64,000 bases of DNA, from the NCBI GenBank assembly GCA_032718475.1, contig JAUCBJ010007908.1, positions 31,626-95,625 on the forward strand, read 5' to 3'. The translations under genes and the position numbers were made by a program. This document shows, piece by piece, positions 9,593 to 47,693 of the stretch (position 1 is the stretch's first letter; the number at the start of each line of letters is the position of its first letter). This DNA comes from Nemertoderma westbladi. Lineage: Eukaryota > Animalia > Xenacoelomorpha. Under the pieces are notes generated by a model. The model saw only the letters and a list, made by a program, of their open reading frames with translations, was not told the origin of the DNA and ran no database searches.

Positions 9593-10140
9593 TATCGTTC
9601 GGAGTGGGCGTGTGACTCTATTATTTTATATTATTTTATTATTTTTATATTTCTGTATGTATTACTATGTAATTTTATTATAATCGTTTTATTTAATTTA
9701 GTAGAATATTATTTAGCGATTATTTAGTAGAATAGTGCAATATGTTCATGTTATTGCGTACGTAATTACTTATATTATATTTAGTGTGACGGTGAGAAAC
9801 AAGTGTTTTTCTCTTTCCTTACTGTCCTGTCCGTATTATATTATAAATACATAACTACAGTCAGATGACATGTCCGTACTTATTAAAGTACAATAAAGCC
9901 ACTACTATATTTAAGTATTATTGGTAGGCAGAGTATTAGGAATGCAAAGTTCAGATCCTCGTGTCTCGGCTAAACCAAGCTCTGGGTAGACCTTGGAAAC
10001 GACTTGCCTCTTCACACTGACATTGCTTCGTGCGATATTGCTCTCATACCGTATATTAAATAATACATATAGTAGCGTGATGTCCCTTTAACAGTAGCGT
10101 ATAACGCAAAATAAATCTGTTAAACCCTTTGACCATCTGT

Positions 10141-10480
10141 AATTCTAGTCGATTAAGATATCGCGGCACCCACCGATATACTTGAAAGACAAATTCTAGA
10201 ATCAGTGGTTAACGTCCCCAGACAAGTTCTGGAATAAATCGGTGCCCATCTCAAATATTAATTATTTAATATTTGCAAATCTAATAAATCAAAATCTGTA
10301 AAATTCAGATCCTTCAACAATTCTAGTCAATTAAGATATCGTAGCATTTACCGATATTCTTAAAAAGACAATTGTCATAGAATTAAGGATCTTGTGTCCC
10401 CAGACATGTTCTAGAATCAAAATATGTCCATTTAATTATCAAATAATAAAATTTCAGGGAATAAATTTAAATTCATGCCT
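10141..10480. repeat. ~178-bp diverged tandem duplication in the BEL pol-to-ORF3 spacer
   Basis: aattctagtcRattaagatatcg...gtccccagaca at 10141 and 10319; also at ~34034 and ~34212. Confidence 0.75.
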
Positions 10481-11038
10481 TTTAATGAATTTAATAAATT
10501 GCCATTTTTACGCAATTTATAACATTCCCAAAATTCCATTAATTAATAGATCAAGGGAGCGGAGATTTATCTTATTATGCATATGAGTGTGCGAAAGTCT
10601 CCCAAACATAGTCAATAGCCGATAAAATTCATAAAGTCATGTATAAAACAGAACATTGACTATTAAAGAATACTATTAAATAACATCCCAGATCTGTATG
10701 CATTGGAATTACCCTAATTCTACCGCTAGCTTTGCATAATGTCACCATAGCAACAACCACGCTAGAATTAGAATTGAGTTAAAAGAACAATAGAAAGCTT
10801 GTCCCATTGAATAGCATAGGGAATAAATAGCGCACTGCTAGTATCCAAGGATACATAATAATACAGTGACATTCTGGAAGGCATTGACTAACGGACAAAT
10901 GGTCCGAATGTGCGTAGTTGTGACCAGTTGTGTGGTATTTGTGAGTTTATAGGTGAATGTTACTGCTAAAGTGTGTTTACAGTATCTAGTCGCAATCGTG
11001 AAAGTAACCTAACTCTCCAAGGAAAACCTGAAGTACAT

Positions 11039-11200
11039 CTAAGCCTTTGGGACGGACAGTTGAGTGACTTGTGCCGGTTATCGTTGTCGTTGTACGGCTA
11101 CGTCGTTGGCGAAAGTACAGCTACAGCGGTACATCGGCGCTGAGAATCTCACACTGTCCGGGGGCAAGGGAGAAGTAGGCAGCGACGCCCGTTCGCCTAA
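11039..11200 (+). other. Conserved structured RNA element, copy a (upstream of BEL ORF3)
   Basis: Nested stems cggacagt/actgtccg and gtgccggt/atcggcgc, a 17-bp inner stem, an apical hairpin and a 3' taggc/gccta hairpin. Homologous to 11771-11929 and 34934-35094 with compensatory changes. Confidence 0.75.
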
Positions 11201-11293
11201 TAAATATATAAACTCATTATAATATTGGTGAACTCGTATAGCAGATATGACTGAATTAATAGAAGATGATCTTGGTATCAGGGAGAGATATAC

Positions 11294-11594
11294 TGTTAGA
11301 TTATGTATTGTTAGGGTTCTAGTAGACCCTGGCTTGGTGGTGGTTAGATCCAACCTACTGGTCTTTTACCTACCGGTCCTCTTCTGGTATTCCGGTATTC
11401 AGTCTTTCCTATCTTCTAGGTCTGTAGGTACAGTAACCGTTACCGGTACCTACTGTACTGCTGTACTGATGTGCTGTAAGGTGGTGGGTGTGTTCGTTGG
11501 TCTGTTGGTTCATATTATTGTTTGATATGCTGTTCTGTATGTCGACCATTAATAAACTGATGCAGCTGGTATTCATTTATTTCCGATCCCAATA
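11294..11594 (+). repeat. Gypsy 5' LTR
   Basis: TGTTAG...CCCAATA, apparently identical to 15785-16085, contains AATAAA. Confidence 0.95.
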
Positions 11595-11605
11595 TGGCGC
11601 AGTGA
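11595..11605 (+). promoter_or_regulatory. Gypsy primer-binding site (probably tRNA-Ser type)
   Basis: TGGCGCAGT directly follows the LTR; TGG is complementary to the tRNA CCA end. The Ser assignment is recalled from tRNA 3' ends and was not checked. Confidence 0.65.
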
Positions 11606-11770
11606 TGTACTTGATGTTCCTACAACCCTATTCAAATGGTGGACATTCCAGCGCATTCAGCAGGTCAGATAATTAAATATTATTCTACCGGTCGCCTCTA
11701 CTGATTCTGATCTAGGCCTAGCTACCTACCTATACTTCTGGTGGTGTACCTACTCCAGTACTCTTCTAAA

Positions 11771-11929
11771 CTAAGCCCTTGGGACGGACAGTGGAGTGGC
11801 TCGCGGTTATCGTTGTCGTTGTGTAGCTACATCGTTGGCGAAAAACACAGCGACGACGGTACATCGGCGCTGAGGACCTTGCACTGTCCGGGGGCCGTGA
11901 GGGGTAGGCAGCGACGCCCGCTAGCCTAA
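11771..11929 (+). other. Conserved structured RNA element, copy b (Gypsy 5' leader)
   Basis: Homologous to 11039-11200; the 17-bp stem tatcgttgtcgttgtgt/acacagcgacgacggta is fully paired including G-U pairs. Confidence 0.75.
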
Positions 11930-12128
11930 TTATAACTACCGGTACCTATTCAATTCACATTCAGCAGTCAGGCGGTATTCCAGTCTGCCAGTATTCGATA
12001 ACTACAGATTTTGGCTGATTTGCATGCAAAAGTTTTGCACATTTTTGCAAAATTTTTTCTTTTCGGATTTTGCAAATTTTTTCGGATATTTAATTTCCTG
12101 AAATTTCTCTAATATTCAACAGTCAGAT

Positions 12129-15100
12129 ATGCCTACTAAAGCTGAACTCGAAACCGAACTGGAGGTTTTAAGAGAACAGTTGGCTGGTCGTGGTAATCCT
12201 GATCCCACCTCAGCTCTTCTACATGCTTTAGTTAAATCACAACGCGATTTGGCTGATTCCTTAGCACAATCCCAAGCCCAAAATGCCCATCAATTTCAAC
12301 AATTACTTGGTCAACCACATCAACCTGTAGTTCATCAGGCTGACTCAACCCCTCGTAATCTTCAAATTAAAGCACCAATTGCTTTAGAACCGGATTTCAG
12401 TTTAGCAAAATTTGAAACTTGGAAGTCGGTTTGGACGGATTATTATTCTGCATTTCAGATGGATAGAATGGCTAGGGATAGGCAAATCTGTATTTTCAGG
12501 AGTTACCTTTCTATAGGTATGCGCTCTACACTGGAACAAGTTATTGACATTCCTCCTGACACACATGATAATCCTTTAACAGTTCAGGTGTTAATAGATT
12601 GTATTCAAAGTTATTTTCGTGGTAAACGGAATATAGCCCTTGATTGTGTTCAGTTTGATAATAGGAAACAACGTCAAAGTGAAAATTTTGATAGCTACCT
12701 GGTTGCTATTAAAGATCTTGCTCGAGATGCTGATCTATGTCGTCATTGTTTCGATCGGCGGTTGACTACTCTAATTATGTCTGGTATTTCTTGCGAGGAC
12801 ACCAGATCTAAACTTCTTGCATTGACTCCATTTCCATCGCTTGAAGATGCTGTAAATCTTTGTAGGTCTGAGGAATCAGCCCAAGCTGGAGTTCAGGATT
12901 TAAAAAACCCTTCAATCAACCAAGCTTCTCGACAATCCCGTTTTCACAACAAAAAGCCTTATAATTCCAGGCGCAACAATTCTTCTAAATCCAATTCCAG
13001 AAACAATTCTTCAAGTACTGGCCCTATAGTTTGTTATGGTTGTGGTAAAACAGACCATAAACGTGCTGACTGTCCAGCAAGGAACAAAGATTGTTCTTAT
13101 TGTGGCAAGGAAGGCCACTTTGCCAGTGTTTGTCGGTCTAAACCAAATAATTCGAATTCATCTTCAAAACCTAAGATAAAACCCATTAGCCGCATCACCC
13201 TCAATTTGGTTGGAAGCCATAATCGACAAGCTCCGAAAGTATTTCTGAACTTCTGTCATATCGCAACAGGACATTTATTCGGTTCTCTCAAAGCAACTCC
13301 AGATACTGGTGCTGAGGCCACTGTTGCCGGCTTAGATTTTCTTCAGGCCCTTTCTATTGACAAAGAAAATTTACTTCCACCAGACCATGATGATCTTTCT
13401 GCTGCTAATGGTAGTCTTCTTTCATGCATTGGTCTCCTCCACACCACAATTTCCTATGGTGAATATTCAACTGATGAGCTTATCTGCATTTGTGAAGAAG
13501 TCAATGGAATTCTTTTGGCATGGTATACTTGTCAAAACCTAGGAATTATTTCAAGTTCATATCCAGAACCAGTGGCAGAAATTCAGTCTGTTGCTTCTTC
13601 TAATTCTTCTAATATGTCACCAATTGGTATTAAAAACTCAATTCCAACAACATCATTCAAGGTTGACTTCCATCTTTCTGATGAACCTTCGCCTTCAGAA
13701 TGGGATACTGTTAAGCAGAAACTCATAAAGGCTTATTCTGATGTTTTTGACCAAGATGACAAACTTCGTCCAATGAATGGCCCACCCATGACCATTTCAT
13801 TAAAAGATGATGCCCAACCATATGCTATTCATACAGCCAGGCAACTTCCTTTAGCCATTAGAGACTGGGCTAAAGCTCGCTTAGAGAAAATGGTTGAACA
13901 AGGTATTATTTGTCCAGTTCTGGATAACGAACCAACTGATTGGGTCCATCCTTCCGATATCACTTCTGATATCACTTCTGATATCACTTCTGATATCACT
14001 TCTGATATCACTTCCGATATCACTTCCGATATCACTTCTGATATCACTTCCGATATCACTTCCAATATCACTTCCGATATCACTTCTGATATCACTTCTG
14101 ATATCACTTCCGATATCACTTCCGATATCACTTCTGATATCACTTCCGATATCATTTCCGATATCACTTCCGATATCACTTCCGATATCACTTCTGATAT
14201 CACTTCCGATATCACTTCTGATATCACTTCTGATATCACTTCCGATATCACTTCCGATATCACTTCTGATATCACTTCCGATATCACTTCCGATATCACT
14301 TCCGATATCACTTCCGATATCGATTCCATTCCAGACGCACTTTCCCGTGCCCCTGTTTCGGATCCTACTCCAGAGGATATTCTTTGTGATACAGATGTCA
14401 ATGACCATGTTTCCGCAGTCATTCGTCACGTGTCTACCTCAATTGTTGTTTCTGATGCTCCAAGTCATCTCAAGGATTCATATATTGAGTCTATCCGATC
14501 ATCTGCAAAGGATGATATTTCTTACATGGCTTTGGTGGATGCTGTTATTTCTGGATTTCCCTCAACATCCACACAATGTTCTGTGCACATACGCCCATTC
14601 TGGAATGTGTGACATCAGTTATCTTGTGAAGATAATCTTCTTTTATTAGGTTCCCGGATTGTAATTCCATCTTCCCTCCGCAAGAATGTCCTGAAGCACC
14701 TTCATGATGCTCATCAGGGCATTGAACGTTCTAAGAGGATAGCTAGGCAAACTGTATTCTGGCCTGGTATCAATAGCGATATTACAAACATAGTCAATTC
14801 TTGTCCCCAGTGTCAACTTTATCAACCAAGTTTACCTAAAGAGTCTCTCCAAAGCGAACCTCATCCATGTCTTCCAATGGAGGATTGCTCTGCTGATCTT
14901 TTCTACTTCAGCACCTGGTCATACCTGGTTTATGTCGATAGATATTCTGGGTGGCCATGCGTTCATTCTTGGCGTGCCGATCCTTCCAGCTCTCAAGTTA
15001 TTTCAGCTCTTCGAGGATGGTTCAAAGATTTCGGTATTCCAAAACGCCTTCGTTCTGATGGTGGTACACAATTTAATTCAGCACGTTATCATGATTTCTT

Positions 15101-15713
15101 ATCCGAATGGAATATCATCCCTGAGTATTCTACTCCTGAGTATCCTCAGTCTAATGGCCATGCAGAGGGGGCTGTAAAGGCCATGAAATCATTGATAAAA
15201 AAGTTAGATGTCGAAGGAGATCTAAACTCTACTTGCTTTGTTCGTGGTTTGCTGGAATGGAGAAATACTCCTAAAGAACATGGTATGTCTCCAGCTCAAC
15301 TGTTGTTCGGTAGATCCCTCCGTTCTACTATACCAGCTCATTCATCCACACTGGCAGGTGATTCATTCCCTATCCCTGGTCCTTCAACGTCTTCAGCAAC
15401 TGAATCATATTATAATGATCATGCTCACGACTTAACCCCGATTCCTATTGGTTCCCGAGTTTGCATCCAGAGTGCACATTCCAAACTATGGAACAAATCT
15501 GGTATCGTCCTTTCCCGTGGTACTAGGCGAGATTACCGGATAGAACTAGACAATGGTCGGGTGTATTGGAGAAATCGTCGTTATCTACGTTCCATCCCAG
15601 ATGACTCTTCTCTTCGTGATATAACGCCTCAAAAACATGTACAGTTCGCTGATGATCTTCCCAGGCGCAGTTCGAGAACTCACAAGCAACCAGCAAGATT
15701 CGGAGTTCAATGA
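12129..15713 (+). pseudogene. Gypsy gag-pol (Gag with two CCHC knuckles, protease, integrase); RT/RNase H absent; in-frame TGA at 14610-14612
   Basis: CYGCGKTDHKRADC and CSYCGKEGHFASVC; protease DTGA; integrase HHCC (LHDAHQG...CPQC) and D-D-E core (ADLF, SDGGTQF, SNGHAEGAV). ORFs 12129 and 14877 share one frame. Confidence 0.92.
13951..14321. repeat. 12-bp tandem array (CTTCYGATATCA, ~31 units) in place of RT/RNase H
   Basis: Read directly; translates as (SDIT)n between WVHP and SIPDALSR. Confidence 0.95.
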
Positions 15714-15784
15714 ACTGACCTATTGGTGGTGGTTGGATTTTTTTTTTTCAGTACAAATGTCTCCTACATTGTTCTTGGGGGAGA

Positions 15785-16085
15785 TGTTAGATTATGTATT
15801 GTTAGGGTTCTAGTAGACCCTGGCTTGGTGGTGGTTAGATCCAACCTACTGGTCTTTTACCTACCGGTCCTCTTCTGGTATTCCGGTATTCAGTCTTTCC
15901 TATCTTCTAGGTCTGTAGGTACAGTAACCGTTACCGGTACCTACTGTACTGCTGTACTGATGTGCTGTAAGGTGGTGGGTGTGTTCGTTGGTCTGTTGGT
16001 TCATATTATTGTTTGATATGCTGTTCTGTATGTCGACCATTAATAAACTGATGCAGCTGGTATTCATTTATTTCCGATCCCAATA
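15785..16085 (+). repeat. Gypsy 3' LTR
   Basis: Matches 11294-11594 and is followed by the TSD TATAC. Confidence 0.95.
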
Positions 16086-16824
16086 TATACCCTACCTTTA
16101 CAAGCGTTTGTCGATAGCTTGATACGCGGCGACGCTGATCCAACTACTACGGAGGACGATGGTCGTTATATCGAACCGCCAATGTCCCAGGAGCAACTTA
16201 CGCGTGAATTGGACTATAGAAAATTCACTGCTCGCTATACGCATCGTAATGGTACGTATCTGGACTTCCTGACTACTGGTCATCCTATTGATTTACACGA
16301 CACCGACGAGGTTGACACCGAAAGGGAAATGGTTTTATTTAAATATCATACCCAGCGGAGTCGAAACGACAAATCGAGAATAGAACACGAGAACTCTATT
16401 CGAAATCAACTCGAAGGATAGAACGTGGAAGAAGGTTGATGCGGACAAATAAAGGAGAACCACTGGAGAAGAGACATGGGTTAATGTCCAGGGTCCATAA
16501 TGTGAATAGTTTTCCCCGGGGCACGGGTGCTCGCGGGCGGTCTCCTTCGGGAGGCTGTAACTTTCTCTTCCTTCATCGTTTTCCTGTAATTATTGTGATC
16601 AGTGTCACAATTAAAAGGCAAGAATGAATGATGATGTGACGGAAAACACATCCATTGTGGTATCTCATGGATACTATCGTATATCCTCCCTCCTCTCTAC
16701 TCCTCTTACCCTCTTATACGTTGTTACTAAAGATACGACATATTTCGTCCCACCTTCTCTTCCCAACGTGCTCGGAGCTTCGGGAAACGAGCACTAAACC
16801 TCCCATCCCTTACTATTAATCTGG

Positions 16825-16985
16825 ATGCTAATATTGGTGTCCGCACCTCCTGTCCATGTCATATTCTGTTGATATTTATGATATCAACCTCCACCCCCTT
16901 ACCGTTTATTTGTATGCTAATATTGGTGTCCGCACCTCCTGTCCATGTGTCATTCTGTTGATATTTATGATATCAACTTCCACCC
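16825..16985. repeat. 89-bp-period tandem duplication
   Basis: atgctaatattggtgtccgcacctcctgtccatgt...ccaccc at 16825 and 16914. Confidence 0.85.
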
Positions 16986-17340
16986 TCTCGTTGATGATTG
17001 GATAATCAACCACCAAGGATTTCCTTAAATCCACAACCGTGATACAAGGACTGAAAGGACACGCAGTTAGTAGGTGAACAACTGGTACCATTGTGTGTCA
17101 TAAATATGGTTGTTCACCTCCCTCAATGATTGGAGATATAAATCTTATAATCTGTAGAACAACTGAGGCATTGAACTGGTTGTTCCCTCATCGCACTGGG
17201 GATAAATTCAGTTGGAGATAGTCCTCGAATGTTACAATCCTCCTACTGAGATCGTATTTCTGAATATTTAGAATGCGAAATAGTTTTTTCCTCTGCTCTA
17301 CCATCGCTGTCGGAGAACATATTAGGCATACAACAGGAAT

Positions 17341-19116
17341 ATGGAGAACATTCCATACCCTTTCGTTGATACTCAGCTGATTGCTCCTTGGGCCGAAGGC
17401 CGAGGTTTCTTTCGCACTATGTATGCCCATACACCCAGCGACATTACTAAAGTACAACGGACATCCATCGGACATCTTGCCTTTCAAGAATATGGATGGA
17501 ACTTCAAAGTTGGAAATCCTATCAATTACCAGCAAGTATATGGAGATCATTACTCTCGTTTATATTTTGATGGACCATTAACTGCGCCTGGTGCCGTATA
17601 TAGCTTTATGAGTGTTCCACTTCGCCCTTCCTTAGCTATATACACGATCTTTGAAAACGCAGCACTTGCCGGTTGGCTAGCCGATGTGTGCAGTCGTACC
17701 ATACGCGCTCACCCATTAATACTTGGAACTAAACTCGCCAAGTTAGACGAACACAATAAGTTCATACGTTTCGAATGTTTCCGGCGCTTTCTGACTCCGT
17801 TCCGTAACGTCGATAGTCAGTTCAAGGACCGCGCGCTGACCAAGCTCAGTCTGAGAGACTCAGCTGCGGAGAAACTGAGTAGCGCTGGATTTGCCGTTTT
17901 TCAAGACGTTTGTATACAGAACTTACATTCATCTGTTATACAAAGACCCCGAATACCTACAGGTTATTCTGTCGTGGAAATACAGACAGTGGATCCACTT
18001 ACTGACACAGACGCACCCACTTCGTCTATACAGCTGGAGGATGAACCAGTATGCTTGGAATCAGAAGCGATTCAGCCTACGGCTTCCCGGAGCAGTGACA
18101 CTGATTATGTCATAGAGTGGTATCAAGGTCCACAACGTCTCACAGCGTACGATTATCGACACGCCAACTACGTTTCTCGAAAACGTTGTCGATTATGCGC
18201 ATCGAGAGACCACTTCACCCCTCTAGACTCGAGCGTACCTTGTTCCTATTTCCTCGAACAACCGATGATGGAAATATATTGTGCTTATTGCCGGCTTAAT
18301 AACTCTCATATTTTTGCCGTCTGCCCACAATTTATGACTCAATGTCACTACTGTCAACTTAAAGGACATGAAAGTTACAATTGTCCCTTTAATCGCGATT
18401 TAGAGAGCGTAGACGAGATGATCACCCTGCGATACATCCGAGCTTGGGAAGCGAACGCAGATTTACATTGCGAATCCCGACATCGCTATTACCCTGGACG
18501 AGCTTACGAGGGAGTTTACGCGTTCCATCCTTATCTATTCGCGTCGATTGAACAGAAAACACGCGTACCAAGTTACGAGTTAATGAAGCGTGTTGGTGAG
18601 TGTATTTCCACCAAGTTTGTCAGAAAATACCTTAGAAACGTTAACCCTAATGATATAACCACATATCACCTGATCAATTTTATCCGTCAGGACCCTGAGT
18701 ATGGCGACATCTTTGTGAACTCGCATCCTGAACTACAGGAAATATCTCGGCGACCATATGAATATCGAACCCGAGAACGCGAGCTGGAGAGAACCATTAA
18801 ACCGAGAAAGTTCCTCACCACTCACGGTCCACCCACCGCTAGTGTCCAGACGACCCGTCAAGGACCCGTAGGAGCTGCTGTCCTGAGACGCGCTCTAAAG
18901 GCCGTTAGACCTCGCTCCACTGAGGTTGATATTAATCAACCAGGTACTTCGACCGGCGGGTATACCGATCGTAACCCTACACCTTCTGATGCAATTGTAT
19001 TGCACCCTTCGCCTCGGAGCTACAGCCCTCCTCGTAAAGTGGCTCGCCCCAAAGAGAAAAGGACTCTTGCTGGCCTCGGGAAACTGCGTAAACGCCGTCC
19101 GCGTAAGAAAGACTAA
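17341..19116 (+). CDS. BEL accessory ORF3, 3' part: 591-aa zinc-knuckle protein with basic C-terminal tail, function unknown
   Basis: Long open frame ending just before the PPT; CRLCASRDH, CAYCRLNNSHIFAVC and CHYCQLKGHESYNC (CX2CX4HX4C); ends KLRKRRPRKKD. The same C-terminus is at ~36500-36655. True start is uncertain. Confidence 0.7.
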   Translation: MENIPYPFVDTQLIAPWAEGRGFFRTMYAHTPSDITKVQRTSIGHLAFQEYGWNFKVGNPINYQQVYGDHYSRLYFDGPLTAPGAVYSFMSVPLRPSLAIYTIFENAALAGWLADVCSRTIRAHPLILGTKLAKLDEHNKFIRFECFRRFLTPFRNVDSQFKDRALTKLSLRDSAAEKLSSAGFAVFQDVCIQNLHSSVIQRPRIPTGYSVVEIQTVDPLTDTDAPTSSIQLEDEPVCLESEAIQPTASRSSDTDYVIEWYQGPQRLTAYDYRHANYVSRKRCRLCASRDHFTPLDSSVPCSYFLEQPMMEIYCAYCRLNNSHIFAVCPQFMTQCHYCQLKGHESYNCPFNRDLESVDEMITLRYIRAWEANADLHCESRHRYYPGRAYEGVYAFHPYLFASIEQKTRVPSYELMKRVGECISTKFVRKYLRNVNPNDITTYHLINFIRQDPEYGDIFVNSHPELQEISRRPYEYRTRERELERTIKPRKFLTTHGPPTASVQTTRQGPVGAAVLRRALKAVRPRSTEVDINQPGTSTGGYTDRNPTPSDAIVLHPSPRSYSPPRKVARPKEKRTLAGLGKLRKRRPRKKD

Positions 19117-19194: not shown

Positions 19195-20424
19195 TGTAAA
19201 AGCCTTTGCTGAATTGCCCCGTTATTTTTATTATCTTTTACATTAAAATACTCTGTAGTTGATTTAATAGGTGTAAGAGACCGTATTATTGCTGTATCGG
19301 TGTTTTTTAGAGGATCTAAGAGCTATTTCCTCCGTATGTGTACTGTGAAAGGCATAGTTGATGATTCTATGGCAATTCGTGACGCAATAGGTGATAGCTA
19401 CTCTTGAACAGTAGTTACTATGACTACGGTTAACAGCTGATATTCATACGTGTTGATTTTCTTTGTTCTACGGCATCTCTCAGTTCAGTCAGCCAATCAG
19501 AGCATTTTTATGGCTCTTGTACAGAGATTTCCTAGAAATCACTCAATGCATTATAGGCAGTGTTTACATTCTGTCCTGAGCCAGGAGAGAGCGGCTTGGA
19601 AATATTTTGTGCTTTTCTGTTTTAGCTTAACACTAGTAGGCTTAATTATAAGGACATATATCCGTTATCTGATGAACTAAACATAACTCAACTTAACAAA
19701 CCATAACTGACTGATGATCTGCATGTACCACATACCTGTGCATACGTTTATATTGTTATACTGCTATTTACTGTCGGTTCTTCATAATATGGTTGATGAA
19801 TTATTATATTTGGAATAACGATAAATAACCCCGAAAACCCAATATTCTTGATATACCGAAGGTAAGAGAGAAAGGTTACATATAACGATTGTGACTTATG
19901 TTAAAGTGGTTTGAAGTGAATCTAATGTTATTTGATAGACCCTACATGAGTCGGTCCGTGTTCCTTTTATATGTGGCTAAAATCAGTGAAGATCGGCAGA
20001 TCAGTGTGCAGTATTGTGCAGCATTGTGTATGAGTGAGTCTGATAACGAAGCATTTCCTAAAGAATGCGCCATATATGTGAATTATAACTAAGCCATATC
20101 GTTGTGAGTAGTTTAAGTCATAACTCTGTTTATATAGATAGAGCGCCACGTCCTAAAGGAACTGTTAATATTCCCCGAAGGTGAATAATATTGTCAGAGA
20201 TTATATAATACTGTCAGTCGAATAATACATTAAGCTTACATAGCAATAAGATTAAGCCGTCGAACCCAATCTCCCGGGTATATCCAGCGGGTGAATGATC
20301 GCGCACAGATTGGTTTCGACTAGTGTAGTGAATTAAATACTTGTCATAGGCTAAAAGTGATTTATTATCTAGAAGACATCCTAATTTGGCGGGTTAAACT
20401 GCCAAAGGTCTGAAAGCGCGAACA
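19195..20424 (+). repeat. BEL copy 1 3' LTR
   Basis: TGTAAAAGCC...GCGCGAACA, homologous to 22332-23534 and 36734-37933. Confidence 0.95.
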
Positions 20425-20749
20425 ACACATTAGAAGAAGAAGCAGAAGAAGGTTCAAACTAACATTACTGCACCATAGCAGGATCGGAAGTAAAGATATG
20501 ATAACATATCAGAATGTCTGTATAATAAAATAACACTCAACTGCACAGCAATTATCCAACCATCACCAATGTAATCATAATAATATTAATAACAGTACCA
20601 GTACACGGTAGGTATCCATCTCTACTAGGCTATACACCATGGCCTAGTTATACGTTCACATATCACAACAGGAATTGCAGTAGTTCATGATGCGATACAA
20701 TCTGGGCAAACACTGCACATGGTGGATCATACCTCTTAACTGTGAACAG

Positions 20750-21560: not shown

Positions 21561-22331
21561 CATGGCGCGGATTGATGTGGGGTCAGGCGGGCAGACGATT
21601 ATTAAGGACAGTATTCTGCAGCCTACCTAACTGTAGGACCAAAACTACAGAACTTGCTTTTGGCCCTACTTTGCTTTAGTAATACCGTTTTTATATATAT
21701 TATTATAAATGTTATTGATTATGTTTATAACCTATGTAATTTCAGCTGGTCGTAGGATTTTAGATCGAAATGGTAAATTTCTTCATAAATATTAATAATT
21801 TAATTGAATAAAAAAACTTGATAAACATGTGGCCTGTCAAAGGTTTAGAAATATTCTGAATTTTGGACAGAATCAAACTGTTTGTCTGTTGGTACTGGTA
21901 GATTCAGATTTTCGATAAAAACCACGATAAGTCAGCTAATCATTGCTGAAATTAAACCAAACTTTGTACGTATGCAGTCCATCACGCAAACCTCCATCAT
22001 CATGAGACCAGGGCCGTATTTAGGGGGGGGGGGGGGGGGGGGGGGGGGAGGGGCCGAGGCCGCAGTGCCCCCACCACAGGTGCCCCCCCCCCCCCCCCCC
22101 CCCCCCCACCACGATCCCACAACTATAATGATCGAGCAAACTATAGAGGAGCCAAACCGAAACCGAACTGAAACAGAACATAACAATTTTGAATTTTGCC
22201 TCTTATTTTTCCCAAAATAAATGTAAAACAAAAAGTTCGTGTGAAAAACATTAAATATTGTTGTATCTTATGAAATTATATTTTTTCACTTTCGATTCTT
22301 GCATTTTTGGATCAGATGTTTTTATACTGAA

Positions 22332-23534
22332 TGTAAAAGCCTTTGCTGAATTGCCCCGTTATTTTTATTATCTTTTACATTAAAATACTCTGTAGTTGAT
22401 TTAATAGGTGTAAGAGACCGTATTATTGCTGTATCGGTGTTTTTTAGAGGATCTAAGAGCTATTTCCTCTGTATGTGTACTGTGAAAGGCATAGTTGATG
22501 ATTCTATGGCAATTCCGTGACGCAAAAGGTGATAGCTACTCTTGAACAGTAGTTACTATGACGACGGTTAACAGCTGATATTCATACGTGTTGATTTTCT
22601 TTGTTCTACGGCATCTCTCAGTTCAGTCAGCCAATCAGAGCATTTTTTATGGCTCTTGTAGAGAAATTTCCTAGAAATCAGGCAATGCTTTATGGTGCAG
22701 TGTTTACATTCTGTCCTGGGCCAGGAGAGAGCGGCTTGGGAATATTTTGTGCTTTTCTGTTTTAGCCTAACACTAGTAGGCTTAATTATAAGGACATATA
22801 TCCGTTATCTCAAACCTTACTTACTGACACTGCATACTGTGTAACACTGTGCATACTTTAAACTGTTATACTGCTATTTACTGTCGGTTCTTCATAATAT
22901 GGTTGATGAATTATTATATTTGGAATAACGATAAATAACCCCGAAAACCCAATATTCTTGATATACCGAAGGTAAGAGAGAAAGGTTACATATAACGATT
23001 GTGACTTATGTTAAAGTGGTTTGAAGTGAATCTAATGTTATTTGATAGACCCTACATGATTCGGTCCGTGTTCCTTTTATATGTGACTAAAATCAGTGAA
23101 GATCGGCAGATTAGTGTGCAGTATTGTGCAGCATTGTGTATGAGTGAGACTGATAACGAAGCATTTCCTAAAGAATGCGCCATATATGTGAATTATAACT
23201 AAGCCATATCGTTGTGAGTAGTTTAAGTCATAACTCTGTTTATATAGATAGAGCGCCACGTCCTAAAGGAACTGTTAATATTCCCCGAAGGTGAATAATA
23301 TTGTCAGAGATTATATAATACTGTCAGTCGAATAATACATTAGGCTTACATAGCAATACGATTAAGCCGTCGAACCCAATCTCCCGGGTATATCCAGCGG
23401 GTGAATGATCGCGCACCGATTGGTTTCGACTAGTGTAGTGAATCAAATACTTGTCAGAGGCTAAAAGTGATTTATTATCTAGAAGACATCCTAATTTGGC
23501 GGGTTAAACTGCCAAAGGTCTGAAAGCGCGAACA
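22332..23534 (+). repeat. BEL copy 2 5' LTR
   Basis: About ten differences from the 3' LTR by eye; CCAAT motif at ~22631 and TATAA at 22787. Confidence 0.96.
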
Positions 23535-23545
23535 ATAACGGATAT
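23535..23545 (+). promoter_or_regulatory. Non-tRNA primer-binding site candidate ATAACGGATAT, complementary to LTR 22798-22808
   Basis: Directly abuts the LTR end, lacks TGG, and is the exact reverse complement of ATATCCGTTAT in the LTR. Confidence 0.65.
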
Positions 23546-23818
23546 TGCTTCTGTATTGCAGTAGGCAATAAAGCTGAAGTACCGGCAACCGGTACCCAGT
23601 AGGCCTGACTACCTAACCACCCGGACCGGTACCTACAGCAGTACAGGTACAGCAGTATTATTCGATTTTGATAATTATATACCGGTAGGCCTTAATAATT
23701 AATCAGGGACTGCAGCCCTGGTTTTTTATTGAGATTTTTACTTATTTCTGTCAAGTTTTATTTGTTTGTAGGCCAGTATTGAACAGAAGGCGTGTAAGCC
23801 TGATCAGATTGTACAGAC

Positions 23819-24390
23819 AATTTGTAGGCTGAGCTGTTGTCTGATTGTTGTTAAGTCTGAACGGATTGCAGTGTGTGTAGATCACCTGTCCGATAAAGAA
23901 CGGTTAGGAAGTAGGGGCAGCCAAAGCTGTAAGGTAAACCCCCAACTAAAGAATAAGTCGTACTACTGGGTTAGAACGCATACTACCTAATCATTTCGGA
24001 GTCTGCATGTCCTGTAGTTTATTTAGGCTTGAGAGTAGTCTGCCATCGTTTAGTCTGTACTTTGTTTGTGTAGTCTGTACAGGTAGCGTATAATATTTAT
24101 TTAGATAATTTGTAGGCTGGATAGTTGTCTGGCTGTTATTAGGTCTGAAGGATTGCAGTGTGTGTAGAGCCTCTGTCCGATAAAGAACGGCTAGGAAGTA
24201 GGGGCAGCCAAAGCTGTAAGGTAAACCCCCATCTAAAGAATAAGTCGTACTACTGGGTTAGAACGCATACTACCTAACTCATTTCGGAGTCTGCATGTCC
24301 TGTAGTTTATTTAGGCTTGATAGTAGTCTGTCAGTATTTGGTCTGCATTTTGTTTGAGTGGTTTGTACGCGTAGCGTAATATTTATTATT
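23819..24390. repeat. ~287-bp tandem duplication in the BEL 5' leader
   Basis: cgtactactgggttagaacgc at 23959 and 24246, with homologous flanks. Confidence 0.85.
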
Positions 24391-25707
24391 CAGAGTTTAT
24401 GCGATTATTCGCAACATTCATTCCCCAAGTTTGTTCCTACAATAATTGTGTTTGTTATACATACCGCTATAGTTAAATTAACCCCGGTACTACACGGGCT
24501 GCTTGGCGTAGGTAAAGACTGGTGATTTTGTGCACCGGTCACTCCAGCAGATGCCGTGGTTCTTTTAGCTGTTCAAGTATATTTAACTACTGATTATCTG
24601 TTGTACAAGTACTCGTACCTAATTTAGGGTTTAGTGTACAGTGCTTTCCGAAAGTAATTAGTGTAGGCATTATATTTGTGTTGTAAAGTGGTTGATAGGC
24701 ACGTTCGATTAGCTCTATTAACTTCTAGGTAGGAACACTCCGTGATACATAACGTAGTACCTATAGCGATACGGCTATAGGTCGTCAGGCGGTGGTATTT
24801 TCCTATCTGGACAACGCAGTGTATTTACTACTACGTATTATTTTCAAATACCGCAGTACCCTGTCCGTTGTAATAACCAGAATTCTAACCCTTTGTTAGG
24901 CTGGTTTGTAGACTTCTTGTAAAATTACCCTGAAAATTCGTATTTTGTGTTTTTTGTAAATTTTTGTGTTTATTTAGAGATTGTAATCTCAACCCGAATC
25001 GTACGTAATTTGTAGTATTAAGTAACTTAGGTAAATTAGAATTATTTGTTTTAGTGTCCTATAAGTAACACTTCACTGAAAGCGCACCGCTTTGTGTAGT
25101 GATTACTCCCCAGAAATAATAACATTTATTTCAAACATTGACAAAACCCATTAAAACGGGTATATATATATTATAAATCAAATCTAACGATTTATAAATA
25201 GTAGGCCTACCATACAACCATTAGGTCTCAATATCAGTTGGATTACTGCTCAAATAACAGTATAAAGTAAGTAAAGTAACCAAGTAACCCTAAAATTCAG
25301 GAATTCAATTATTTAAAATAATTGATATACCGGTATTTACGATAGGCCTATTATCTTTATTTCTATAAATTTAGGCTGAAATTATACCGGTACTTGTAAT
25401 TAATTCTAGTCCAGAATTATATATACTACAAACTGTAAGCTGTATACCGGTATTCCCGATAGGCCTATTATATATTTATATATATTTGTGCTAAAATTAT
25501 ACCGGTATTCTGTGATAAACCTAGTCTGTAATAATACTTATATAGTTATATATACTATAAGCATACCGGTATTCTAATATATTATATATATCACGCTACA
25601 CTGAGTAGCAGTACCGGTAATTAATTACTAGGCTAGCAGTTAACTCTGAATTACTAGACTTGCTTAAACTGTAATATAGCAGTAGGCATTCAACTGTGCA
25701 AACCAAC

Positions 25708-28700
25708 ATGTCTGATACTAAACAGAACCTGTCAGACAGTTTATTAGATGTAACTATCTGCGACTCAGATAGAGGCGTAGAACCGTCTAGTCGTAAGTTC
25801 AGTTCACCTCCCACTGTGAGGAAGGTCATCCCTCCTGTAGTAATAACAGAACCTAGGCTGGTCCAACATCGTAGGTCTATCATAGGCACTCGAGCTCAGG
25901 TCAAGCGGGACCAAGAAGCAGCAGAACAGCAACAACCCGCGAGCCAAGAACTTACTTCTCAACGGCCCAACAGCTCCAGTAGTGAGGATACTGTAGAACT
26001 GACACCAGAACGCGGAGCAAAGATGATGGATGCGGTTTATTCGGATCCCCTTCTCATCCTTCCTGCAGCCGTACTCACTAGGTTATTGATTGCGGTGGAA
26101 GAACACCAGATCGATTGGGCGAGAAGTCAGCGATCAACTAGAGATAGTTATGCGGGATACACGAGGGAAGAACTGAAGTCTATTGTCGAGTCGCAATGGA
26201 ACTTCCCCGGACCCGGACTCCCGTTTGATTTATCAGAAGCTGCCTGGGAAGACATACACCGGATGGGAGTAGCCAAGGAAACCATCGATCCAGCTGTGTG
26301 GAAGAGGTCCGCAGCCGGATACGCACAGGGATTCTTCAGCTCTATGGAGCGAGTAGAAAAACAACTGTTACAACAACCTCAAGGACCTCAAGAGTGGGGA
26401 CAACTGCTTTATCAAGTTAGAGAAAGAATTCTGCGAATTAGGCTAATATTATCAGCCTTTGAAGAGGCTTCTAAAAGAAGACAAGACACGTCGTTGCAAG
26501 TTGCCGTAAAGACTTGGTTTCAACGGGTGAGTCGCCAGGTTCAAGGAACAGCTCAGTGGAAAGATCAGCTGGAGGAGCGCTCAACCCATGGAGAATCAAC
26601 AGACGCTACTTTTTCCCAAGTGGAAAGTGAAGCGACGGCAGAGAAACCGCATAAGAGGGATGCCATTGACATCTATCTGTCAGACTATCAACGTTTTGTA
26701 GGAGATGAAGAGTTGAGGAGAAGGTTAGCGGGACTTAGTCCTAATAGTGAAGGAGCCCAGCGTGTGTTGGATGCAATTGATGTGGATAGGTTAGCGGCGA
26801 ACCAAGCTAAATTCGATGAACAACTCCGCATCGCTAGAGACCAAGAAGAAAAAGTAAGGAAAAAACGTATAGAAGACAGAAAGATAGCAGCAGTGGCAGA
26901 GGCAGAAAGAAAAGCGACCTTGGCAGCGGCAGCAGCAGAAGCAGAGGCAGAGGCAAAAGCGGCAGCAGCGGCAGCGGCAGAGGCAAAAGCGGCAGCGGTG
27001 GCGGAAGCAGAACGGAGAGCGGCTGAAGAGATCGCCCAACTGGAGTTGGAAAATCTTCAAGAGAAGCAAGACGACTTCAGTAAACAGTTAACAGCTAGTA
27101 ATATGCAGATGATGAATCGATCTACTCCCAAAAGACAGGGTTATACATCATCTGAGGAAGGCGATACCACCGACACTGAAGGCGGAGGAAATCGATCTCG
27201 CCTAAGCAGACGTAAAAGAACATTCCACCATCAGAAATTGCCTGATTTGCCTCCAGCTGTTAGAAGGCAACTAAATAACACCAACTTAGCGAGTACAGAA
27301 CCCACAGACCAAATAATTACAATAGAGAGACTCCCTACTATAGTAGATGAGCCTGAAATAATTAGGCCTGTTCCTGAAGCTACCCTTTCGGTCGTAGAGA
27401 CACCTGTACTCCCTGAACCTACCTCTCAATTCCCGTTGCACAGCACTAAGCTACCTGTGCCCAGCAGAACAGCCCATGAGACAGTTCATGCTCTGGACTC
27501 CGAGCGAAATATTCATGATTTGTCGCCCGTTGTCCCTCGTCCGCCCGCTACAACGTTGGCGGATCCCGTTTCGGCGGTTGATTGGGTGGACGAGAGACGG
27601 CGGGGGATGGACATTCTCCTCGGAAAGATGGAGGAGAATCAAAGGCGCTCCTCCCAACAGGTCCGAGAGTTAGAAGGGACTGTTCAACAGTTAAAGGGAA
27701 CCGTAAAGGAAAGTAGGTTAGAGTTGCAGGAAGTGCAGCAAAATATTGCACTAGAACGTGATAAATTAGTAAATTTACAAAAGGGTATACCACCACCCCT
27801 TGTAACAATGTGTCAACCTGTTAGGTCTGAAGTATCTCGTGCGCAAGGTGTGGAGCCTACACGCATCTATACTGCTAGCGAAGTAGAAACTCCTATAGTG
27901 AACCCTATTAAGGGTAATTATAGACCTGTTGATAATGATATTCCCTATAGACCGGATCATAATCCGAGAAATTTATATACCGATAACTCGATATTAAATA
28001 ACATGATGGCCCAAGAAAGTTTTACGCGTCAAATGGCTAGAACCGAAGCCCGGCAAGCGGTAAAAGTGGGAGAGATCGTCAAGTTCAATGGAGATGAGAT
28101 GAAATGGTTACCTTTTAATGAATATTACAAAGATAACATACAGAACTCTGTCCTATCTAATGGAGAGAAACTAAGATTCCTCATCGAGTGCTTGGAAGGA
28201 TCTCCCAAGTTAATGGCGTTAAAGTTTATTGGACATCCAGACGGATTAAGACAAGTTTGGGATACACTAAACATCAGGTATGGTAATAGGAATAACATAG
28301 CTGGGTATTTGTATGCAAAGTTGGTAGCGCCCCGAAAGTTTATTAGCAGCGGAATTATAGAGTTTTCCGATGAGATTCAGGAGATCTGTAGACAATTAGA
28401 TTGGCTAGGTAAGTCTCATGAGTATCAGAATGCTATGGTTATTAGAGCAGTGGCTTCTACTTTACCGAAGGGTGGAGTAGGTACACGCTGGGATAAGAAA
28501 GTGTTATATATGATGGAACAACAACGACGAGACCCTACCATGGCTGATCTCATGTCATTCCTAGATGGAGAAGTGAAATTACAGCTCCTGAAACTGTCCA
28601 GAGAGAAGACACCGGAAAACAAGGTAAGTGAAAAACCCGTCTCTAGGAGAAAGATAACACCAGTGTGTTATACAGACGACGGCGAAAGCCAGACTTCTCA

Positions 28701-31700
28701 AGGAGAAGATAGCGGGAAAGACACTGATAGATCTTATTACGTAAATAAAATGCCTAAAGATCAGGTAAGTAAATTCAAGTCTCGAACAAATGACAGGAGA
28801 GAACAGGTAAGAAAAACTCCTCCTACGTCTCCCAAGAGAATTCAGGTGAGAAAGCCCGAAGAAAAAGCAAGTGTACACAATGTGACTCAGAGTAAGGTGA
28901 GTAACATCAAACCGAAATGTGCGCTATGTGACGGGACCCATCGCTTAAATATGTGTGATGAATTTCTAAAGAAATCATTAACTGAGAGACGTGACGTCAT
29001 GTGGGATAAGCGGTTATGTTATAATTGCCTCAGACAAGGACACCAACGGCGAACCTGTTACTCTGACATAAGGTGTGCAAAGTGTGGTGCGAAACATCAT
29101 ATCTTGTTGCACGCTGAATTCGAGCGAAATAGTCCGAATCAGGTAAGTGATTCCGAACTACATGTCCAATTCAGTGATGTGAACGACACTGATCAATCTG
29201 AGATGGAAGGATTCTATACGGACGAGTTCTCCGACGAAAACGAATCCTGTTACATGATAAATACCGCAGTGTATCGAGCACTCACATATGAAAAAGATAC
29301 AGACAGCGACTTCACTCTAACTACTTCTGATCGACAACCATCTTGGAAAGAGCCATCTTCCAATGTAGGGATCCGAGAGTTTCCTGTGGTGCAGATAAGG
29401 GTTCACGGACCTAAACGGAGTTATGTAGTGAACGCCCTCCTTGACTCCGGTAGTACAGGAACATTCATCAACAAAGAGCTAGCCGAAGACATATTTTCTG
29501 GACAACCCATGTTCCGAACTAAGCTAAACATGTCAGGCATTATGCAAGTTTGGAAATCTACATTAACAGCGGATTATTATGTAGGCGCGTTGTCCACCCC
29601 CCAGGACGAACTAGGAGAACATAGCATAAGGTCAGTGAAAATGGTAGCTATAAAGAACTTCGCTACTACTCAAGCAGACCTTTATAATTGGGACGAGGAT
29701 GAGAGCATCCAACATCTTAACATACCTCGATTCCAGACTGATTATCCTGGAGTGCAAATACTCATCGGCCAAAACGCGCATGAGGCGCTGGAGACATTAG
29801 AGAAACGGCCTGCTCAACCGCAACCACTACAGATCTATGCGGTAAGAACTAGAGTAGGTTGGTACTTTACTGGCCCTTCCCGTGGAACACTCAGAGAAAG
29901 ACTACCGCAAGAGCGCGTCTGCCAGGTGAGTGAATGGGAAGATGATACTAGTGAGGGAGACGATTTAACTGAGGGAACCCCATACTCCTCAGATAACGAC
30001 GACGTTCACCAGCTTTTTGATGAGGAGAATACCATCGATCTCCTTAAGGAAAACGAGGCTTGGCAAAACCAAGTGAACTAATTCTTCAGCTAAAGAAATG
30101 TATCAAACACAGCTAGAGAAATTTATTAGTAAGGGATACGCGGAGAGAGTACCGGAAGAAACACCTGTGACTGAAAGAACGTATTACTTAACTCACCATT
30201 ACGTTCCTAAACCCGGTAAACCACATGAAGTGAGAGTAGTGTTTGATGGCTCCGCTCTTTACATGGGTCAATCCCTTAACTCTGAATTGTTACCCGGACC
30301 CAACTTACTTCAATCTTTGTTGGGAATTCTTTTAAGATTGAGACAATATTCGATTGCTTTCGCCTCCGATATAGAAGGCATGTTCTTACAAGTCAAAGTG
30401 TTAGATAGGGATCGAGATAGTCTACGATTTCTGTGGTGGCCCGAAGGAGACCTCAACCAGAAACCGGTGGAGTACTGGATGACCATCCAGGCCTTTGGGA
30501 TAATCTCAAGCCCTTCCAACGCCTGTTCGGTAGTGCGTACCACTGCAGAGGACAATCGAGAGGCCTTCTCTAAGGAAGTGATCGACAACATCAAGTGGGA
30601 CATATACATGGACGACAATCTGAAGTCCCTTCCATCAGTTGAGGAAGCCATTGAGGTCGCTAAAGGAACGGTAGAGTGCTTAAAAAGAGGTGGGTTTCGA
30701 TTAACGAAATTCACCAGCAACTCCCGTGAGTTTCTGGAGTCGATCCCTGCGGAAGATCGAGGGGCGAAAGATCTAGATTTGATCAAAGATGATCTGCCAG
30801 AAACCAAGACACTCGGCTTGAAATGGGACACAGAGCGAGATATCCTGTTTTTTCAGCTAAAACAGCGAGATAATCCAGTTCGAACCAAACAGATTTGCTT
30901 AAGTATACTGAGCACTTATTTCGATCCATTGGGATTTATTAGCCCAGTTATATTGATTGCTCGTAGTTTGGTACAACAAATGTGGCTTGAAAACCACTCA
31001 TGGGACGATCCACTTAAGGGAGAATTATTAAAGAAGTGGATGAAATGGGAAGATTCTCTGCCGGCTATCGAGGATTTTATAATTTCCCGTTCATATTTTG
31101 GTCATGTTCTCCCTACGTATTCCTATCAACTCCATGTGTTTGGAGACGCCAGCGATATGGGAATAGGTATAGTAGCCTATCTAAGAGTGGAAACTCTGGA
31201 TGGAATCAAAGTCGCCTTGGTTACTTCTAAGGCATTAATCAACAACAAGTTGAAAGTTCCTCGAGCGGAGTTAAAAGCGGCTCTATACGCTACAGCCATC
31301 GGCCGGAATGTAACAGAACAGATTGACTATCCATTAGAGAAAACTGTCTATTGGACCGACGCTTTACTCGTGTTAGAGTATATAACCAATGAAGTCTGTC
31401 AGTTCAGCGTCTTCGTTACCAACAGAGTAGCCATCATACTTAGTCGCACGACGATGGACCAATGGAGACATTGCCCCGGAACGATTAATCCAGCAGACAT
31501 CGCTTCCCGAGGAGCGACTCCAAAGGAATTGGTAAATACTCCCGAATGGTTAGGTGGACCCGACTTTCTCTACCGAGAAGAAGAAGAATGGCCTCCCCAT
31601 CTCACAACAGCAGAGATCAGACAGGCCAAGGGAGCGGAGAAAGTTAAACCCAAAACTCGAGCGAGTAAATCGAAGTTGTTTAAACCTGCGGTTGATCTAT

Positions 31701-33490
31701 CTGTATTATTTACTTCCGGAGAGGATGCTTTGGATCAGAAACCCACCGCCACGACTAAAGAAGTCTTGGAAATCCGTGACAAGGATTGGAAATCTGGAAT
31801 ACCAGATATCGCGCAAGGACTCTCACCCCTCTTGCAGAGAGCGATACGTCACTACAGCTCCTGGAATCGGCTCTGTAAAGCCGTCACCTATTTAAAACGA
31901 TGTTTTCATCATCGTTACTCCGGGACAAAGACCAATAGTGATGATGCTCCATCAACGTCTGCAAGAGTCCATGTTGTTAAAGATCTTCCCAAATACAAGA
32001 TATCCGACAGGTTTCTAAAGGAGAAGATCAGTTACCAGGAGCATGATGAAACCAACAAACAGATGCTGAGACTCCTACAATGCTATGAAGATCCCGATAA
32101 GTATTTCCTGTTGTTAAGAAATCCGCAGATGCGCTTAAGGGATCGCTTCTCGAGTACCATGATAGATGGGTTAATCCGTGTTGGAGGCAGGCTTACCAAC
32201 GCCCCATTATCCTTTGACACTAAATTTCCCATACTCATTAGAAATCTTGACATACAAATCAAGATGATTGTAGATGTTCATAGCAAACTGTATCATGCTG
32301 GAAGAGAACGAGTTCTGAGCGAAATTCGAACTCGCTTCTATTTTTATAAACCCCGTAGGGCTCTGAACCAAGTCCTTAGGAACTGCATACCCTGTAGGAA
32401 AGCATTCAGTAGGCCTTTGACACAGCGAGAGGCAAAATTACCTAGGGAAAGAGTAAGCTTCTACGAACCACCCTTTACTAATACCGGTGTGGATTTATTT
32501 GGCCCTATTGAAGTATATCGTGCCCGGACGATAGTCAAGAGATGGTGTGTCATCTTCGTTTGTATGACTTGTAGAGCTATCCATCTCGATATGGTAAACG
32601 ATCTATCCACCAACAGCTTCGTGTTGAGTTTACGACGACAGATCGCTCGTTTCGGAACCAGTAACACGATGAGATCGGATAAGGGAACGAACTTCATTGG
32701 CGCCCACAACGAAATTCAAGCTTACGTAAAGGACTGGAACAAAAGACAGGTGGACGATCAGCTAAAGATAACAGCGTCTAGCTGGACCTTCAACGCCGCC
32801 GACGCCCCTTGGTGGGGAGGAAGTTGGGAGAGATTGATTAGGAGCGTGAAGACTGCGTTCCACTTTATTGTACCTTGTCGCGCTTATCTCACCGACGAAC
32901 TATTGCGGACATTAATGGAGGAAATCGCCGCCTATCTCAACGAAAGACCGCTTATGCCAGTCTCTTCAAGTCCTGATTCCCTGGAAGCGCTAACACCCGC
33001 GCACTTTCTACTGAAGAAACCCGTAGCCATGCTCCCACGATCGGAGATCACAGACGGAGACGAGTACTGCCGTCAAACCTGGCAACTTATGCAGTTGCTA
33101 TCCCGTCGTTTCGCTGACCATTTCGAGAAACATTACCTGCCCACTCTACAACTTCGAACTAAGTGGTTTGCGCAGCAAGAAAACGTCAGCGCTGGAGACA
33201 TGGTGCTTATTGTGGACCCCGATCTCCCACGTAAGCGATGGCAAACAGGACGTATCATCGAGACTTATATCTCGAGCGATGGTTTGGTGCGATCAGTAGA
33301 ACTCGTCGTCATGCGGCGTAACTTTAAGAAACCAGGGATAGTCTTTGAGACTCAACAGCTCAACTGCCCAGTGGGTCGTTTATGTTTACTGGAAAGAGAC
33401 AGAGAGCTCTCCGGAAACTATGGAAGGCAAGAAACTCTTCCCACGACCACTTCCCTAATCCAACCGACATCTAGGGACTCCCCAACTTAA
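25708..33490 (+). pseudogene. BEL/Pao gag-pol, copy 2; open except for one ~322-bp frameshifting deletion at ~30080
   Basis: ORFs 25696-30081 (Gag-protease) and 30098-33490 (RT-RNase H-integrase). The sequence matching 5871-6192 of copy 1 is missing, with CT microhomology at the junction. Confidence 0.93.
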
Positions 33491-34933: not shown

Positions 34934-35094
34934 CTAAGCCTTTGGGACGGACAGTGGAGTGACTTGTGCCGGTTGTCATTGTCGTTGTGCGGCTACGTCG
35001 TTGGCGAAAGTACAGCGGCGACGACACATCGGCGCTGAGGATCTCGCACTGTCTGGGGGCTGATTGGGGTAGGCAGCGACGCTCGCTAGCCTAA
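34934..35094 (+). other. Conserved structured RNA element, copy c (upstream of ORF3 in BEL copy 2)
   Basis: Homologous to copies a and b; inner stem tgtcattgtcgttgtgc/gtacagcggcgacgaca. Confidence 0.75.
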
Positions 35095-35137
35095 ATATAA
35101 ACTCATTATAATATTAATAAACTCATATATAGCAGAT

Positions 35138-36655: not shown

Positions 36656-36733
36656 CTGTTTAGAGTATCTTTATGTTTTAGAAACTGTGATTTTTATATT
36701 TTATAGACTGAAAATCCCATTTTCTGGGAGCGG

Positions 36734-47070: not shown

Positions 47071-47693
47071 TTTACTTTATTTAACTCTATTTGCTTTTTG
47101 GAGCATTATTACAGGAATTCATTTCAAAATATAAGGTAAAAATTCAGCATCCGCATATATATTTTTGGTTTAGATTTGTTAGCGGACTAATGGCCTTCCA
47201 TTTCTTACAAACTATCAATTATTTATATTATTGGCAAATAAATATTTATTGACTATTTGGAATCGTATTAACTATCAAAGATCTGCTCATTTCATTTCAT
47301 AACAATAAAACGTTAAATTTATTATTATTCAGCCTTTCAGACAAGTAATAGGTTCTCACAATAGCAAGCATCATACATTGCAGTTGTATACCAAACAGGT
47401 TGACCAATCATGAACGTTCATTAATAAATAATCAGCCAATCATTGTTAAGTTTTCAAGGGGGTTGATAGATTGATGGCTAAACATCCACAGTTCATTTAT
47501 ATAACTTAACCAGTTTCAGGTTCAAAACGAATTTAAAATTTCCATAACTCCAAATTGGTGGCGTGCAATCCTTTCCCATTCCGAACCTGAAAATTCCGAT
47601 CATAAATATGTAACGAATTTTCGAAATTGTCCGGGTTGGAATTGCCCAAAACAGAAATCATTTACGATTAAATATTTTGCAAACAAATGTTTA

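Follow-up and report, generated by a model that had tools for sequence, protein, structure and literature searches.

The window, that is, the whole stretch of 64,000 nucleotides of Nemertoderma westbladi DNA analysed here, carries two copies of a BEL/Pao element and one Gypsy element, and a module of about 160 nt occurs in all of them. The elements, the open part of BEL ORF3, and the three module copies (a, b, and c, with their covariance model scores) are located as follows.

1-20424, + strand: BEL/Pao copy 1, with its 5' end outside the window, the 3' LTR at 19195-20424, and a frameshifted pol
17326-19116, + strand: open 3' part of BEL ORF3 (596 aa), with CCHC-like knuckles and a basic C-terminus recognized by eye
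11294-16085, + strand: Gypsy element with identical LTRs (11294-11594 and 15785-16085), TSD TATAC, and a PBS at 11595
22332-37933, + strand: BEL/Pao copy 2, with both LTRs (99.1% alike) and TSD CTGAA
11039-11200, + strand: module copy a, in BEL copy 1 between pol and ORF3 (176.7 bits)
11771-11929, + strand: module copy b, in the Gypsy leader, with 3 nt of the middle stem missing in comparison with a and c (172.9 bits)
34934-35094, + strand: module copy c, in BEL copy 2 (184.1 bits)

Pfam domains DUF1759, Peptidase_A17, and DUF5641 were found in both BEL/Pao copies; the Gypsy element, with gag-pro and integrase present, matched zf-CCHC, Integrase_H2C2, and rve. Pfam gave no match to reverse transcriptase (RT) or RNase H in this Gypsy copy. 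A 12-bp tandem array (13948-14321), in frame in the Gypsy ORF, occupies the place where RT and RNase H would be expected. The named protein relatives were 30-50% identical and came from various animals. The search for BEL pol in viral contigs produced 0 matches. The identical LTRs and the TATAC target duplication show that Gypsy inserted recently into the beginning of BEL ORF3. Only 93 nt separate the insertion point (11294) from the homologous module upstream of it in BEL copy 1, by chance or by targeting.

The BEL ORF3 protein is Cys-rich with a basic tail. It had no Pfam match and 0 relatives in two homology searches; Atlas leads under 0.9 point to CCHC-knuckle clusters, and a single-sequence structure model (pLDDT 29.6) was unusable. 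Since no relative is detectable, any role given to ORF3 is a guess. The middle of ORF3 is non-homologous between the BEL copies (16432-18964 versus 35524-36503) and both ends match; judged by its sequence, ORF3 behaves as an exchangeable cassette. Elsewhere in the window there are a 20-bp array (47688-48476) and a 48-bp satellite extending over 13.6 kb (50347-64000).

The module is the sole clear homology between the BEL/Pao and Gypsy elements here. In a sensitive blastn comparison of the whole Gypsy element with the first 47.5 kb, the only two strong matches were the module (E 5e-47 and 4e-41), and the next-best match (E 0.016) was situated outside the BEL copies, in agreement with the original prediction that the families share nothing else. 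That weaker match, 33 nt at 20462-20494 (- strand), resembles the Gypsy LTR end and PBS and is perhaps a relic of a related family. Between the families, the module identity was 82.9% over 164 nt (a-b) and 84.5% over 168 nt (b-c).

The limits of the stretch shared by BEL and Gypsy coincide exactly with those of the fold, and no BEL flank was carried over; the module appears as a GC-rich island with sharp edges within AT-rich DNA. CTAA is present at both ends of a, b, and c; in other BEL variants the 5' CTAA is replaced. The coordinates and spacing predicted for the three copies were correct: the next AUG is 46 nt past copy a (11247) and 43 nt past copy c (35138), and the gag AUG (12129) is 199 nt downstream of copy b.

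The covariance model search detected no further module copies in 50 kb. A fourth match (21963-22134, 23.7 bits) was rejected as a poly-G/poly-C hairpin. The BEL leader repeat had no score with this model. It is a tandem 290-nt unit in the BEL 5' leader (23815-24101 and 24103-24387, 89.6% alike). A long closing stem rich in G-U pairs is predicted for both copies, with whole-unit z-scores of only -0.9 and -1.3.

The Rfam search, which had been proposed along with the module, matched no family: Rfam 15 gave 0 matches at the gathering threshold over the 64 kb and 6 weak matches within 10900-12100, the best of which over the module had 17.8 bits compared to a threshold of 43. Scans with module patterns gave 1 match for one pattern (attributed to chance) and 0 for two others in viral contigs, 2 matches in a metagenome, both within bacterial ORFs, and 0 matches in prokaryote genomes.

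The consensus fold has 58 pairs and consists of a short basal stem, a long bulged rod, a 4-bp apical hairpin, and a 9-bp 3' hairpin. Its main parts in copy b are the following.

11785-11793 and 11882-11890, + strand: arms of the outer stem, nearly invariant
11808-11861, + strand: 17-bp inner stem (11808-11824 pairs with 11845-11861) and apical hairpin, the covarying part
11905-11928, + strand: 3' hairpin, predicted to have 9 bp and a 5-nt loop, nearly invariant in sequence

The predicted folding energy per copy was from -74 to -79 kcal/mol. On the + strand the folding z-scores were -5.55 (a), -4.00 (b), and -4.75 (c), with 0 of 200 shuffles as good in each case, compared to only -1.79 (b) and -2.21 (c) on the - strand. 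The fold is far better on the + strand, and these predictions support a structure of the + strand RNA, the strand named in the earlier proposal. A conserved structure on the sense RNA, as expected of an export or packaging signal, is thus predicted for the module.

The changes described originally in pairs 2, 16, and 17 of the inner stem were confirmed. Among the three window copies, 98% of the cells pair and 3 pairs are changed on both sides; since 46 of 500 shuffles scored as high, these copies alone do not prove covariation. In 11 haplotypes (the three window copies and eight contigs from public runs) the inner stem pairs in 183 of 187 cells, with two-sided changes in 4 of the 17 pairs. For example, one pair series includes U-A, G-C, and G-U, and another A-U, G-U, and G-C. 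The number of broken pair types was 3, compared to 8.3 ± 1.4 when the 17 alleles were re-placed at random (rough P about 0.001, not tree-corrected). This statistic is support rather than an R-scape result, since it ignores relatedness and the stem was derived from the same sequences. The claim of a conserved, covarying + strand structure across both superfamilies therefore held in the larger set, with kinship ignored, while the three copies did not reach significance. We also observed that copy b has a 3-nt deletion in the middle stem without compensation. In the BEL flanks, 10942-10951 is complementary to 11207-11216 over 10 bp, without a matching change.

Seven public runs were listed, none of them as an RNA run, and five were examined as contigs, which were phased by the depth figure. 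The haplotypes included 2 of 2 contigs from run X5 and 6 of 17 from run X4; left out were X4 contigs that covered a single strand or were not among the listed pieces, a c-like contig of the same run, and every contig from X6 (8) and X3 (328). The X4 haplotypes, with eight variant rows outside the listing, may miss some changes; in the X5 contig of depth 61 the changes and gaps sum to the stated 23.

In these contigs, the BEL positions had a far greater summed depth than the Gypsy positions, as well as many variants; the module is present in many other BEL copies, as the original prediction would have it. The X5 contig of depth 61, which is fully phased, is equal to b in its first 29 and last 26 aligned nucleotides; in its 5' flank, about 16 of 30 positions agree with a when compared by eye. 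One of the X4 contigs, placed in a group with a BEL-type 5' loose end, is 7 of 127 letters off b, compared to a difference of about 17% for a. Among 24 of the 52 loose-end rows, the ones listed, 12 were at the module edges; 9 of these were BEL-type by eye, 1 was too short, and 2 were mixed and unreadable, and no third context was seen in the 24.

On the Gypsy side, a contig from X3, with a depth of 779, extends from the leader into the module by 29 nt, two short of the 31-nt bridging rule. The leader/module junction is likely multi-copy, since rare variants had depths of 25-90. This evidence concerns the 5' Gypsy side, and the 3' junction was absent among the listed pieces. Neither joints skipping the module (five runs examined) nor splice joints (public-run contigs, including those of X6, guessed to be an RNA run) were seen; such contigs show presence, not absence.

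An 8-bp pseudoknot or kissing loop between the apical loop and CAGCGACG, with the latter in a free hairpin loop, had been part of the original prediction. We found that the first five bases of CAGCGACG are instead predicted to be paired in the 9-bp 3' hairpin (unpaired probability at most 0.11 in each of the three copies), so the partner would be locked in its own hairpin. The loop has six variants (CGUCGU, CAUCGU, CAACGU, CUACGU, CGACGU, and one 5-nt form), and the fully phased X5 contig has mismatches at two loop positions opposite an unchanged partner. The apical stem in which the last loop bases are held is supported by a U-G to C-G change. The 8-bp contact therefore lacks support; a shorter invariant contact is conceivable. 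The idea of a dimer loop is a lead only: 6-nt palindromes are found in two loop variants, but not in the loops of a, b, and c.

The flanks of the module contain start codons and splice-like sites.

11201-11293, + strand: AU-rich linker, acceptor-like AG, and the ORF3 start AUG (11247), cut by the Gypsy insertion
11661-11680, + strand: donor-like CAG/GTCAG (site 11663/11664), followed by a 16-nt arm complementary (14/16) to 12086-12101
12033-12131, + strand: T-rich tract, tandem acceptor-like AGs at 12122 and 12126, and the gag AUG (12129), with splice use predicted

An acceptor-like AG occurs just ahead of the next AUG in BEL as well as in Gypsy. ORF3 and gag both have CAGATATG at their start, and in Gypsy it is preceded by a long T-rich tract. 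The 16-nt arm after the Gypsy donor-like site is not rare by chance alone and is a lead only. In BEL, an AU-rich, AUG-free linker of 43-46 nt separates the module from the ORF3 AUG; an AUG-free stretch of 326 nt also occurs elsewhere in the pol-ORF3 spacer. Splicing to another acceptor-like site, near 10983, would leave the module within the ORF3 mRNA; no AUG follows that site for 290 nt. Past the ORF3 AUG, 4 of 5 differences between a and c are silent. In the Gypsy leader, an AUG at 12024 opens a short in-frame uORF. The frame after the module is open to the AUG in c and closed in a and b, and YAGCAG occurs about 40 nt downstream of the module in all three copies.

Other parts of the BEL element had features of a similar kind. 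A stretch of 1157 nt before the BEL gag start (24551-25708) is AT-rich and AUG-free, beginning just before a good acceptor-like site near 24568, and its sequence suggests a spliced, scanned leader. In the pol-ORF3 spacer there are further well-folding AT-rich windows (10079-10560, z from -5 to -6) and a two-copy 100-nt repeat (10141-10238 and 10319-10421) in which no two-sided changes were seen.

BEL copies 1 and 2 differ at 13 of 1000 positions upstream of the module, 18 of 158 inside it, and 9 of 88 after it (Fisher P 5e-9). Because the differences jump in this way and then stay near 10%, crossovers occur at the module, and we infer a crossover point in its 5' part between the BEL copies. 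The results also supported the earlier view that b was not copied from the neighbouring element. On the other hand, the independent mobility and two-way exchange proposed with it lost ground: only BEL and Gypsy contexts were seen, and one-way capture from BEL by Gypsy is simpler, since b falls within the BEL diversity. To judge from the sequences, the module looks native to BEL, and a multi-copy Gypsy family seems to have acquired it a single time; it does not look independently mobile. Both the direction, BEL to Gypsy, and capture by RT template switching are what we infer from these patterns.

The reading we favour, with a rough probability of 0.4, is that the module is a covarying BEL/Pao structure, likely captured by Gypsy through recombination, and likely acts as a handle that proteins bind to export or package unspliced RNA. 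The structure would form on the sense RNA of a high-copy BEL/Pao family, and a Gypsy family would take it from BEL by template switching of the reverse transcriptase. Splicing to the AG before each AUG would then remove the module from the ORF3 and gag mRNAs, while a host factor or the zinc-knuckle ORF3 protein would bind it and aid nuclear export or packaging of the unspliced genomic RNA. A bolder version, which we hold to be doubtful, makes the module the response element of a Rev-like system, with the orphan BEL zinc-knuckle ORF3 as its protein and the RT-less Gypsy tapping its export or packaging machinery.

Export or packaging would be favoured over an IRES because of the splice-acceptor-like AG just before the next AUG in both contexts. 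Use of the predicted splice sites would place the module in introns and restrict it to genomic RNA, as is the case for export and packaging signals. However, an IRES would account equally well for a location 5' of an ORF start in both elements, the acceptor-like site near 10983 would retain the module in the ORF3 mRNA, and covariation is weak in the window copies, with relatedness ignored in the larger count. It is possible, if somewhat unlikely, that the module is an IRES or translation enhancer loading ribosomes for ORF3 and, after capture, for Gypsy gag. Hairpins as strong as -74 to -79 kcal/mol block ribosome scanning, and such a function would also be consistent with the sense orientation and the AU-rich, AUG-free linker in BEL. 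Two IRESs are described in Drosophila gypsy in the accessible part of PMC4276936. Nevertheless, the spacing to the AUG is not kept (199 nt in Gypsy, with the intervening AUG at 12024 and its uORF), no Rfam IRES matched over the module, and an acceptor-like AG stands beside each AUG. An IGR-type (type 6) IRES, whose open frame would begin right behind the 3' pseudoknot, does not fit, since the frame is open to the AUG in c only.

That the module functions in BEL only, with the Gypsy copy a neutral passenger from template switching at a strong hairpin, we regard as improbable. Copy b could be a passenger because of its uncompensated deletion and its host copy without RT; it is also nested in the BEL diversity, and a crossover occurred at the same place between BEL copies. 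Still, the shared stretch ends exactly at the fold ends without BEL flank, the fold is kept in b (z -4.0), and the deep X3 contig runs from the Gypsy leader into the module. Regulation of the nearby acceptor, e.g., by hiding a donor-like GUAGGC and a branch-point-like CUAA, appears slightly less probable again: both motifs are paired in the invariant 3' hairpin, and YAGCAG follows in all three copies, but the motifs are short and common, and the long covarying stem would be left unexplained. For a self-cleaving or self-processing RNA of an undescribed class, which we consider quite unlikely, one could cite the invariant junction core with a variable peripheral helix and the precise ends of the transferred piece. 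An HDV-like fold has nested P1/P2/P3 with L3, a G after P1, and C-N-A before P2, and a hammerhead core has CUGANGA and GAAA with three stems. Our own HDV-like descriptor, run with no positive control, had 0 matches in three regions on both strands; no conserved hammerhead core was found, CUGANGA being present in b and c but not in a, with CUGANGA and GAAA in or beside the long stem. Together with the Rfam result, this speaks against the known ribozyme cores; furthermore, the proposed tertiary contact does not covary, and cleavage within genomic RNA would presumably hinder LTR replication. The least probable account is that BEL and Gypsy each received a separate insertion of a dispersed SINE or MITE. 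The sharp-edged GC-rich island and the CTAA at both ends would suit it, yet the window and the listed contig rows revealed no TSD, TIR, poly(A), or empty site, the 5' CTAA is absent in other BEL variants, and there was no module-skipping joint in the five runs, no third context among the rows listed, and no further copy in 50 kb.

We conclude that the module is a real and covarying RNA element, undescribed in the literature covered, which belongs to a BEL/Pao family in one host lineage and was likely captured with precise ends by Gypsy. A structure excised at its own ends and moved across two LTR superfamilies is a natural transplant experiment, which marks a minimal portable element of 160 nt. 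How unspliced RNA leaves the nucleus is an open question for LTR elements without known export signals. If the favoured reading is true, a BEL/Pao RNA signal with a candidate partner protein makes this question testable, and Gypsy's use of the module would amount to RNA-level parasitism across superfamilies. We found no report of an RNA structure common to BEL/Pao and Gypsy in the literature covered, which included few subscription papers and no supplements.

Several known systems could be compared with the module. The musD transport element (MTE) is a structured cis-element that needs a validated kissing loop and pseudoknot (accessible part of PMC5767303). Like the MTE and CTE/RRE (same source, same part), the module is a structured cis-element that lies outside the main ORFs of its LTR element and is plausibly carried by unspliced RNA. 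Unlike them, it has no sequence or Rfam match to these elements, its proposed kissing contact fails covariation, and export is a candidate role. The Drosophila gypsy IRESs are also cis-elements upstream of retroelement ORFs (PMC4276936, in the part accessible), but there is no sequence link, the AUG spacing of the module is not kept, and its IRES activity is putative.

The CERV protein of C. elegans Cer1 is an extra Cys-rich protein, made from a spliced mRNA and needed for genomic RNA export (PMC10309623, accessible text). BEL ORF3 is similarly Cys-rich with a basic tail; however, it had no homology match, CERV has a C4-type loop compared to the CCHC-like knuckles of ORF3, and binding by ORF3 is a candidate activity. 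The HML-8-derived transport element of SERV-K/MER11, about 750 bp, was gained by recombination between two related retroviruses (PMC11379458, as far as its accessible part describes). It is likewise an RNA module acquired through recombination between retroelement lineages, while the module described here has 160 nt, is cut at the fold ends, and crosses from BEL/Pao to Gypsy. In bdelloid retroelements, ORF3 has been exchanged between unrelated elements (accessible part of PMC5408684). Exchange across unrelated retroelements is thus common to both cases, with proteins exchanged there and a non-coding RNA structure here.
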